Assembly (NCBI GenBank): GCA_934098395.1
Contig: CAKOOM010000003.1
Span: 88,091 to 152,090, forward strand
Length of the DNA stretch: 64,000 nt
DNA from: an uncultured Bacilli bacterium
Lineage (GTDB): Bacteria; Bacillota_I; Bacilli_A; RF39; UBA660
Direction of reading: 5' to 3'
The number at the start of each line of letters is the position of its first letter. Position 1 is the stretch's first letter. A program made the position numbers and the translations under genes. Below the pieces are notes generated by a model. It was not told where the DNA came from, did no database searches, and worked only from the letters and a program-made list of their open reading frames with translations. Shown in pieces: positions 35,033 to 35,150 of this stretch.

Positions 35033-35046
35033 ACAATTAAAAGATA

Positions 35047-35087
35047 AAATAATGCTTTTTCCAAACAAAAAAAGCATTATTTTTTTA
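35047..35087 (+). terminator. Rho-independent terminator of xfp (ATAATGCTTTTT/AAAAAGCATTAT plus a T-run). It forms the 5' part of the duplicated promoter module
   Basis: A perfect 12-bp inverted repeat followed by TTTTTTT. Confidence 0.7.
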
Positions 35088-35091
35088 TCCA

Positions 35092-35150
35092 AAACCCGTT
35101 GACATCCTAATACTTTTTGCGGTATCATGGTTATATGATAGGTGAGATAG
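35092..35150 (+). promoter_or_regulatory. Conserved promoter/leader module (CCGTTGACATCC...TTTGCGGTATCAT...GATAGGTGAGATAG-ATG). It is near-identical to 47907-47971
   Basis: TTGACA at 35099-35104 and TATCAT at 35123-35128 (18-nt spacer). The RBS GGTGAGATAG immediately precedes ATG 35151. Confidence 0.55.

Follow-up and report, generated by a model that had tools for sequence, protein, structure and literature searches.

A poly-T promoter cassette of a recombining exported-protein family as a candidate slipped-strand switch in an uncultured gut Bacilli bacterium

This study concerned a stretch of 64,000 nucleotides (nt) of an uncultured Bacilli bacterium (contig CAKOOM010000003.1; the whole stretch analysed is called the window below), in which a module of about 115 nt, composed of a hairpin, a promoter, and a ribosome site, precedes both a 582-amino-acid (aa) exported protein and an unrelated 389-aa protein. 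As the best explanation of the whole, we favour the view that the module is the 5' cassette of a recombining exported-protein family and that the poly-T run in its promoter acts as a slipped-strand switch comparable with that of the mycoplasma vlp genes. This view builds on the observed distribution and boundaries of the cassette copies, the mosaicism of the genes that they precede, the capture of one copy by a foreign gene, and the hypervariability and position of the run. The origin of the cassette in the family and the capture of its second copy in the window are highly probable, and a functional switch, with transcription controlled by run length and high-frequency switching within a clone, appears somewhat probable.

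Two cassette copies and the multigene family behind them

Alignment of the two copies from AGATAAAATAATG to ATGAAA (copy A, window 35043-35156; copy B, 47854-47977) gave 106 matches, 9 mismatches, and 8 gap columns in 123 columns, corresponding to an identity of 92% with gaps excluded and 86% with gaps included, whereas the 40-45 nt flanking them on each side matched at 40-44%, the background for DNA of 28% GC, which is the composition of the window. The duplication with about 90% identity that a first-pass annotation had noticed here is thus real. The window contains exactly two copies of each of the sequences CCGTTGACATCC, TTTGCGGTATCAT, and TATGATAGGTGAGATAGATG, and the expected number of occurrences for CCGTTGACATCC and TATGATAGGTGAGATAGATG was 0.0-0.04.

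Both copies run from an A/T-rich hairpin with a T7 tail through TTGACA, a T-run, GCGG-TATCAT, and AGGTGA to the ATG, in agreement with the anatomy given in the first-pass annotation (insulating hairpin and T-tail, TTGACA/TATCAT promoter, AGGTGA ribosome site, ATG). In copy A, the hairpin (AAAATAATGCTTTTT / AAAAAGCATTATTTT) with its T7 tail spans 35046..35086 on the + strand (fold -13.7 kcal/mol, z -6.25) and is the terminator of xfp as well as the insulator ahead of the cassette. It is followed on the same strand by the -35 hexamer TTGACA at 35099..35104 (11/12 matches in the promoter scan, with a spacer of 18), the T5 run after TAATAC at 35114..35118, a short stable state giving the 18-nt spacer, the -10 hexamer TATCAT at 35123..35128 from the same promoter scan, and the Shine-Dalgarno sequence AGGTGA at 35140..35145, read from the sequence 5 nt 5' of the ATG. 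Copy B, also on the + strand, has a hairpin with the loop variant CCATATAGTG and the T7 tail at 47858..47901 (fold -15.6 kcal/mol, z -6.43), in which a single C-to-T change retains a G-U pair, then TTGACA at 47914..47919, a T9 run at 47929..47937 that makes a 22-nt spacer and is hypervariable across assemblies, TATCAT at 47942..47947, and AGGTGA at 47961..47966. The T7 tail is identical in every cassette copy displayed with its hairpin, and folding of the short leaders gave no structure.

The hexamers match the sigma-70 consensus at 6/6 and 5/6 positions, and TTGACA-17-TATCAT also drives the adjoining small-peptide gene on the + strand of the window; therefore, sigma-A with canonical spacing was adopted as the working assumption. 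An alternative -10 TATGAT, or a -35 lying within or after the run, was rejected because the spacing was poor or the transcript would start inside the ribosome site. No real match to Rfam, and hence no riboswitch or known small RNA, was found in the whole window at the gathering threshold or in 47100-48000 at E <= 1. A TG-TATAAT motif is present on the + strand at 47829-47838, about 20 nt 5' of the copy B hairpin, and the arrangement recurs in L010 and L011. Transcription from this motif would yield little beyond the hairpin and its U-tail; the motif may specify a tiny RNA or may simply belong to the AT-rich antisense-promoter region.

The gene behind copy A (35151..36899, + strand) belongs to a large family. 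No second copy of the 582-aa or the 389-aa protein was detected by tblastn within the window, where the two downstream genes are unrelated, as first annotated. The 582-aa protein has thousands of homologs, including paralogs elsewhere on the 205-kb contig that carries the window, and the cassette lies directly upstream of every paralog examined, in four distinct chromosomal contexts. These are the position after xfp (the window copy, L006-L009, and L103-L105), after a SASP gene (L010, L012, L099, and L100), after an ALK_LTK_GRD-domain gene and a toxin-antitoxin-like unit (hereafter TA/ALK; L011, L101, and L102), and after gyrB (L019). Three of the paralog contexts and copy B are located on the one 205-kb contig, and the fourth locus comes from another assembly. 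The two-copy regulon first suspected is accordingly replaced by a multi-copy family, put at four or more paralogous loci per genome, whose members share a 5' region.

In the DNA alignment of five paralog loci, homology begins at about -120, at the hairpin, with identity climbing from about 0.4 to 0.75 or more; it peaks at 94-96% between -40 and +60, becomes patchy in the coding region, and ends just past the stop codon. By this profile, the module forms the 5' end of the unit that was duplicated in the family. The cassette of about 115 nt is conserved uniformly and not only at its boxes, and all 22 full and 2 diverged copies have one orientation and lie directly 5' of a start codon. Members of the family measure about 575-605 aa, and a conserved signal/anchor segment follows the ATG.

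An exact-pattern scan with CGTTGACATCC..TGCGGTATCAT gave two matches in 185,579 reference genomes, both dismissed as chance (one in a coding region, the other in an unrelated GC-rich promoter), and none in the JGI metagenome contigs or the viral contigs. Family members of other species have different upstream modules, again common to their own paralogs; in L020, L021, L022, L063, L064, L067, and L072, for example, TTTACA-17-TATAAT and a leader of about 60 nt with a hairpin are shared while the left flanks differ. Having a conserved 5' cassette is thus characteristic of the family in general, and the sequence of the present cassette is lineage-specific.

Concerning the protein itself, the AlphaFold2 model of the 582-aa product is poor (mean predicted local distance difference test score 50.6). 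It contains a hydrophobic N-terminal helix at residues 2-34 and, as its only confident part, a beta-sandwich at residues 40-190. The C-terminal region has a weak resemblance to FGE-sulfatase, the match being borderline (23.1 against a cut-off of 23.3) and present at E <= 0.01 in 8 of 12 members. Foldseek searches of the model against the PDB returned nothing at E <= 1e-3, the PDB sequence search with the family returned nothing below E = 0.58, and the NCBIfam and Pfam signal models did not match the protein. The N-terminus, MKNRNILTILLVLTIIFTIMGGSLAYFTWQ..., contains no lipobox, the first cysteine being residue 49, with none in the first 48. The label "SipW-cognate" attached to the protein at first could not be maintained, as there was no NCBIfam match at E <= 1, and only a resemblance of motif exists between GGSLAYFTW in the family and GATFAYFSAS in two tandem genes of the window at 7278 and 8154. 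These tandem paralogs (255 aa at 7278-8045 and 241 aa at 8154-8879; compared over 7150-7400 and 8026-8276) have a TasA-like conserved N-terminus ending in GATFAYFSAS, share a stretch of about 75 nt that is 100% identical over the promoter, ribosome site, and start, and have no Pfam match in either copy.

Capture of the cassette by the 389-aa gene

The gene behind copy B encodes a zinc-ribbon / transmembrane / HExxH protein of 389 aa (47972..49141, + strand) and is a conserved single-copy gene, its product being identical in 22 contigs and conserved across species. The ortholog in a related species has 53% identity and is likewise followed by the genes for a 60-aa protein and a P-type ATPase, but its upstream neighbour is a gene of the phosphoglucomutase family, and it has an unrelated promoter of its own and no cassette. 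Copy B is therefore a secondary capture. In the window, the order is ftsW, two tandem toxin-antitoxin-like units, the cassette, and the 389-aa gene, and the block of about 500 nt formed by one such unit and the cassette is homologous to the block that precedes the paralog in L011, with the homology stopping at ATGAAA. At its N-terminus, the 389-aa protein does not depart from the usual variation among its orthologs. To judge from these comparisons of sequence, copy B is a chimera in which the cassette replaced the ancestral promoter of the 389-aa gene. The segment 47858-47971, originally delimited as copy B, is thus a true duplicate, but its left edge at 47858 is not the edge of the homology, which, in the comparison with L011, extends about 380 nt further upstream across a toxin-antitoxin-like unit.

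The first of the toxin-antitoxin-like units (47155..47539) carries on the + strand a TTGACA-17-TATCAT promoter, a GAGGAG ribosome site, and an open reading frame (ORF) for a 28-aa hydrophobic peptide, MKEKDIIIFYQGVVIFLLIIIILLMLIK (47291-47377), and on the - strand a convergent promoter (47509..47481) and a terminator (47405..47383); each strand thus has a promoter of consensus type, and each has a terminator. The second unit (47540..47857) is a tandem copy in which the peptide ORF has been deleted, and a partial copy of the cassette hairpin is found at its left junction (47518-47554). The same unit occurs at L011:2510-2870 and at L101/L102:1040-1370, directly upstream of the cassette, and it always adjoins a cassette copy; in L101/L102, an in-frame deletion leaves 16 aa of the peptide. 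A hydrophobic peptide with a convergent, overlapping antisense unit is the pattern of type I toxin-antitoxin systems, to which the unit may putatively be assigned. No toxin or antitoxin family, RNA or protein, was matched by the unit in Rfam, Pfam, or NCBIfam, and a 21-nt stretch of it was not found in the viral contigs.

The two diverged cassettes (L010:4940-5045 and L099:3440-3545) consist of a variant hairpin, an unchanged CCCGTTGACATCCTAACTA, a T14 run, GTGCTAAAAT, which is a TGn-extended -10, and AGGAGG. They precede an unrelated 245-aa membrane-anchored protein outside the window, and this gene is absent at that locus in L012.

Run length, gene conversion, and the proposed switch

The spacer of the promoter is built as TTGACA, TCCTAA(CTA/TAC), Tn, GCGG, and TATCAT, and the cassette copies differ in the length of Tn. 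All ten copies of the TAATAC type, at the xfp and TA/ALK loci, have T5 (spacer 18), which at the xfp locus was seen in five assemblies of the copy A allele and three of a second allele. In the TAACTA type, the SASP locus has T5 (18) in L099, T13 (26) in L100, and T16 (29) in L010, the TA/ALK locus has T7 (20) in L011, and the gyrB locus has T7 (20) in L019. Ahead of the 389-aa gene, the same type has T7 (20) in L004, T9 (22) in the window and L003, and T15 (28) in L005, and the T7, T9, and T15 assemblies encode an identical 389-aa protein. Another SASP allele, with TAATATA, has T6 (20) in L012. On the 205-kb contig, the 18-nt state is found only in the copy at the xfp locus. The spacer lengths of 18 and 22 nt first reported for copies A and B were therefore correct as measured, whereas their interpretation as a fixed difference between two promoters was not, each being one state of a run that ranges from T5 to T16.

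The variability is concentrated in this run. Across the three assemblies of the 389-aa locus, 7,170 shared columns contain 1 single-nucleotide polymorphism (SNP) and the run is the sole indel; at the SASP locus, 3,413 shared columns contain 31 SNPs, and the run is again the sole indel. The other homopolymers of at least 7 nt, 18 at the 389-aa locus and 3 at the SASP locus, are invariant, as is the T7 tail of the cassette. The T9 of copy B is the only homopolymer of at least 9 nt in the 64-kb window, and in a further 108 kb of the same species all runs of at least 9 nt are cassette runs. A poly-T difference was also seen in a distant relative within the family (47-49% identical in the N-terminal domain), where L085 (at about 1950) and L094, representing the same locus in different samples, have T10 and T9, respectively, in the promoter spacer just upstream of TGGTATAAT; their surrounding upstream sequence is identical, and the genes share the first 600 nt or so and then diverge completely.

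The coding regions vary in another manner. When the window was compared with strain L103, the flanking xfp and ezrA were 98-100% identical in DNA, whereas the gene between them (window 35151-36899 against L103:1501-3231) was only 59-91% identical. In 90-nt windows, the alleles are 98-100% identical to paralogs at other loci, and the L103 allele at the xfp locus matches the TA-locus and SASP-locus alleles in segments. With near-identical flanks and segments matching other loci, the xfp-locus gene is a gene-conversion hotspot. L011 and L010, which come from one genome, show 100% identity over +330 to +600, in windows where L010 is the best match, and over +60 to +330 L011 is 100% identical to L099, which represents the L010 locus in a different assembly with an allele 99% identical to that of L010. 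The same block mosaic is visible in the protein alignment of the family, and one locus carries different alleles and different cassette sub-types in different strains (L010 and L012; L011 and L101). By these sequence patterns, gene conversion has turned the coding regions of the paralogs into mosaics.

These data suggest the following mechanism. The hairpin and T-tail would stop read-through from upstream and keep each gene on its own promoter. The run between the hexamers would change length by slipped-strand mispairing; a T5 run, giving an 18-nt spacer, should be transcribable, and T6-T16 runs, giving spacers of 20-29 nt, should allow weak or no transcription. Since slippage alters the spacing of the hexamers, each member could be switched on and off at random, and in a given genome only some copies of the family would be in the on configuration. 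The coding bodies would in the meantime be shuffled among the paralogs by segmental gene conversion. Recombination of the block of toxin-antitoxin-like unit and cassette to a position ahead of the 389-aa gene would have put that gene under a variable promoter, and the diverged cassette would serve a third unrelated gene, that of the 245-aa membrane protein.

Several points weigh against this mechanism. The lengths are scattered from 5 to 16 and are not clustered one step from the on length, and as most variable copies are 2-11 nt too long, the run could equally drift because spacing is irrelevant. The run lengths were read from consensus assemblies of short-read metagenomes, and long runs may be one or two bases in error. 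Despite the conservation of the 389-aa gene, all of its observed spacers (20, 22, and 28) are predicted to be poor, and so either this gene is usually off or its transcription is independent of the TTGACA box. Surface exposure of the family is predicted solely from the N-terminal hydrophobic helix of a model. Finally, the poly-T next to the -10 of vpma in Mycoplasma agalactiae was shown to have no role in switching (PMC2268961).

The vpma run is a documented non-functional case, and the scatter of lengths and the vpma example both speak for a simpler explanation, namely a recent duplication or gene conversion of the paralogs with a neutral, unstable homopolymer, in which the promoter works or fails whatever the run length and no programmed switch exists. 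The uniform, rather than motif-like, conservation of the cassette agrees with it, as do the tandem paralogs at 7278 and 8154, whose promoter, ribosome site, and start region are likewise 100% identical, so that such a pattern is common here. We consider this explanation possible, with a probability well short of even, because other observations do not agree with it. Runs of at least 9 nt are otherwise absent from 172 kb of the DNA of this species, which suggests selection against them except at the cassette site; the run falls precisely within the spacer of a near-consensus promoter and has been kept in the diverged cassette despite the changed -10 and ribosome site; and the genes served are a diversifying exported-protein family, the classic setting of a contingency locus.

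The first-pass annotation had offered CCGTTGACATCC and GCGGTATCAT as sites of a dedicated sigma factor or regulator that would co-regulate the 582-aa and 389-aa genes and perhaps ezrA. The boxes are indeed invariant in all copies apart from one or two substitutions just upstream of TTGACA, and most copies contain a TATCAT-N6-ATGATA palindrome, which overlaps both the -10 and the region of the start. We nevertheless regard this proposal as improbable, since the hexamers are those of the housekeeping consensus and the spacing ranges over 18-29 nt, a variation in inter-box distance of up to 11 nt that is incompatible with a fixed two-box site, and since the family members of other species have unrelated promoters. 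The palindrome was rejected as a conserved operator, as L103-L105 have ATCATA in place of one arm and the half-sites of copy B are 8 nt apart instead of 6. The supposed third box upstream of ezrA (37080-37089; TTTGACATCC, one mismatch) is at chance level, with 35 of 100 shuffles giving at least three such matches. The box read there, TTTGACAT, is the right arm of an 8-bp inverted repeat, ATGTCAAA...TTTGACAT (window 37040-37090), which lies between the terminator of the 582-aa gene (36978-37003) and ezrA, and another AATGTCAA is found just upstream.

Another explanation considered was that the module is a small mobile or repetitive element of intergenic DNA, such as a miniature inverted-repeat transposable element, a repetitive extragenic palindromic element, or a Correia-like element, and carries a promoter only by coincidence. 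In favour of this, unrelated genes of three kinds lie downstream of the module, and the toxin-antitoxin-like unit accompanies it in three contexts. The explanation is very improbable: the single orientation throughout, always ending at the start codon, the lack of terminal inverted repeats or target duplications beyond the hairpin of the module itself, and the lack of real copies in the exact-pattern scans of the reference genomes, the JGI metagenome collection, and the viral contigs all oppose it, and whole-gene duplication explains most copies.

If the switch operates as proposed, a broader picture may be sketched tentatively, as a speculation that we hold less probable than not being so. 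The cassette would be a portable stochastic promoter that spreads by recombination, often with the toxin-antitoxin-like unit, and recruits unrelated envelope genes (those of the 389-aa and 245-aa proteins) into the contingency network of a gene-converting surface-protein family; this would be a mycoplasma-style system of antigenic and phase variation in a lineage of walled, spore-forming commensals of the human gut.

The host and comparison with known systems

The window carries polC, aspS, a class-3 FBPase gene, phosphoketolase, ezrA, secDF, relA, dtd, ftsW/rodA, and a P-type ATPase gene, a set of Firmicute housekeeping genes. The two nearest named EzrA homologs (83-84% identity), which are the basis of the taxonomic placement, come from metagenome-assembled genomes labelled 'Bacilli bacterium' and 'Acholeplasma sp.', and SASP and SpoIIIAH-like genes are present on the same contig as cassette loci. 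Human-gut metagenome assemblies, among them Hadza ones, contain identical proteins, and a pig-gut assembly contains one allele.

Repeat-tract promoter switches are textbook knowledge for mycoplasmas and mucosal pathogens, and to our knowledge they are little documented for uncultured gut Firmicutes. The literature on phase variation in the gut that we found deals mostly with invertible promoters and methylation switches, largely in Bacteroidales. The present locus offers a testable case, with a predicted on length of T4-T5 and several loci per genome, and the heterogeneity of run length can be read directly in public Hadza and other metagenomes. It also illustrates the capture of a switchable promoter by an unrelated conserved gene, and a fast-diversifying exported family with thousands of gut-metagenome homologs is a likely target of pressure from the host, phage, or competitors.

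Among the known systems, the vlp genes consist of paralogs that each have a conserved promoter and signal sequence followed by a divergent body, and here too several paralogs each combine a conserved 5' region with a divergent body. As in Mycoplasma hyorhinis vlp, M. mycoides vmm, and M. arthritidis maa2, the repeat tract lies between the -35 and the -10, and the host is a low-GC relative within the Bacilli/Mollicutes radiation. Insertions and deletions in this spacer switch transcription in vlp, maa2, and vmm (PMC2268961). Unlike Vlp, the present proteins are not lipoproteins, measure about 580 aa with a weak FGE-sulfatase-like region, and are not tandem-repeat antigens; the host is walled and has genes for sporulation, its paralogs are scattered and form no cluster, the tract is a poly-T with a very wide length range, and switching is what we infer here.

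The vpma genes of M. agalactiae have a poly-T directly 5' of the -10 and remain monocistronic because of terminator hairpins (PMC2268961); they resemble the present family in having poly-T in the promoters of variable proteins together with terminator hairpins. Their switching was attributed by experiment to a recombinase and not to the T-run (PMC2268961). No recombinase or inverted cassette copies were seen at the present loci, and vpma is a cautionary counter-example.

Other parallels are more remote. In opc, porA, and nspA of Neisseria meningitidis and in fim of Bordetella, the amount of a surface protein is set by a homopolymer within or beside the promoter spacer; those are single genes of Gram-negative pathogens without a family-wide cassette, and their tract is G/C or A. 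Antigenic variation by gene conversion, in which segments are exchanged between paralogs, is known for pilE/pilS of Neisseria and vlhA of Mycoplasma synoviae, and likewise the alleles at one locus are here patchworks of other loci. Unlike those systems, with a single expression site and silent partial cassettes, all copies are full-length and have their own promoter and start codon. Based on these comparisons, we infer that the system works like a vlp-type promoter-spacer contingency locus combined with diversification by gene conversion, in a protein family that is not Vlp.

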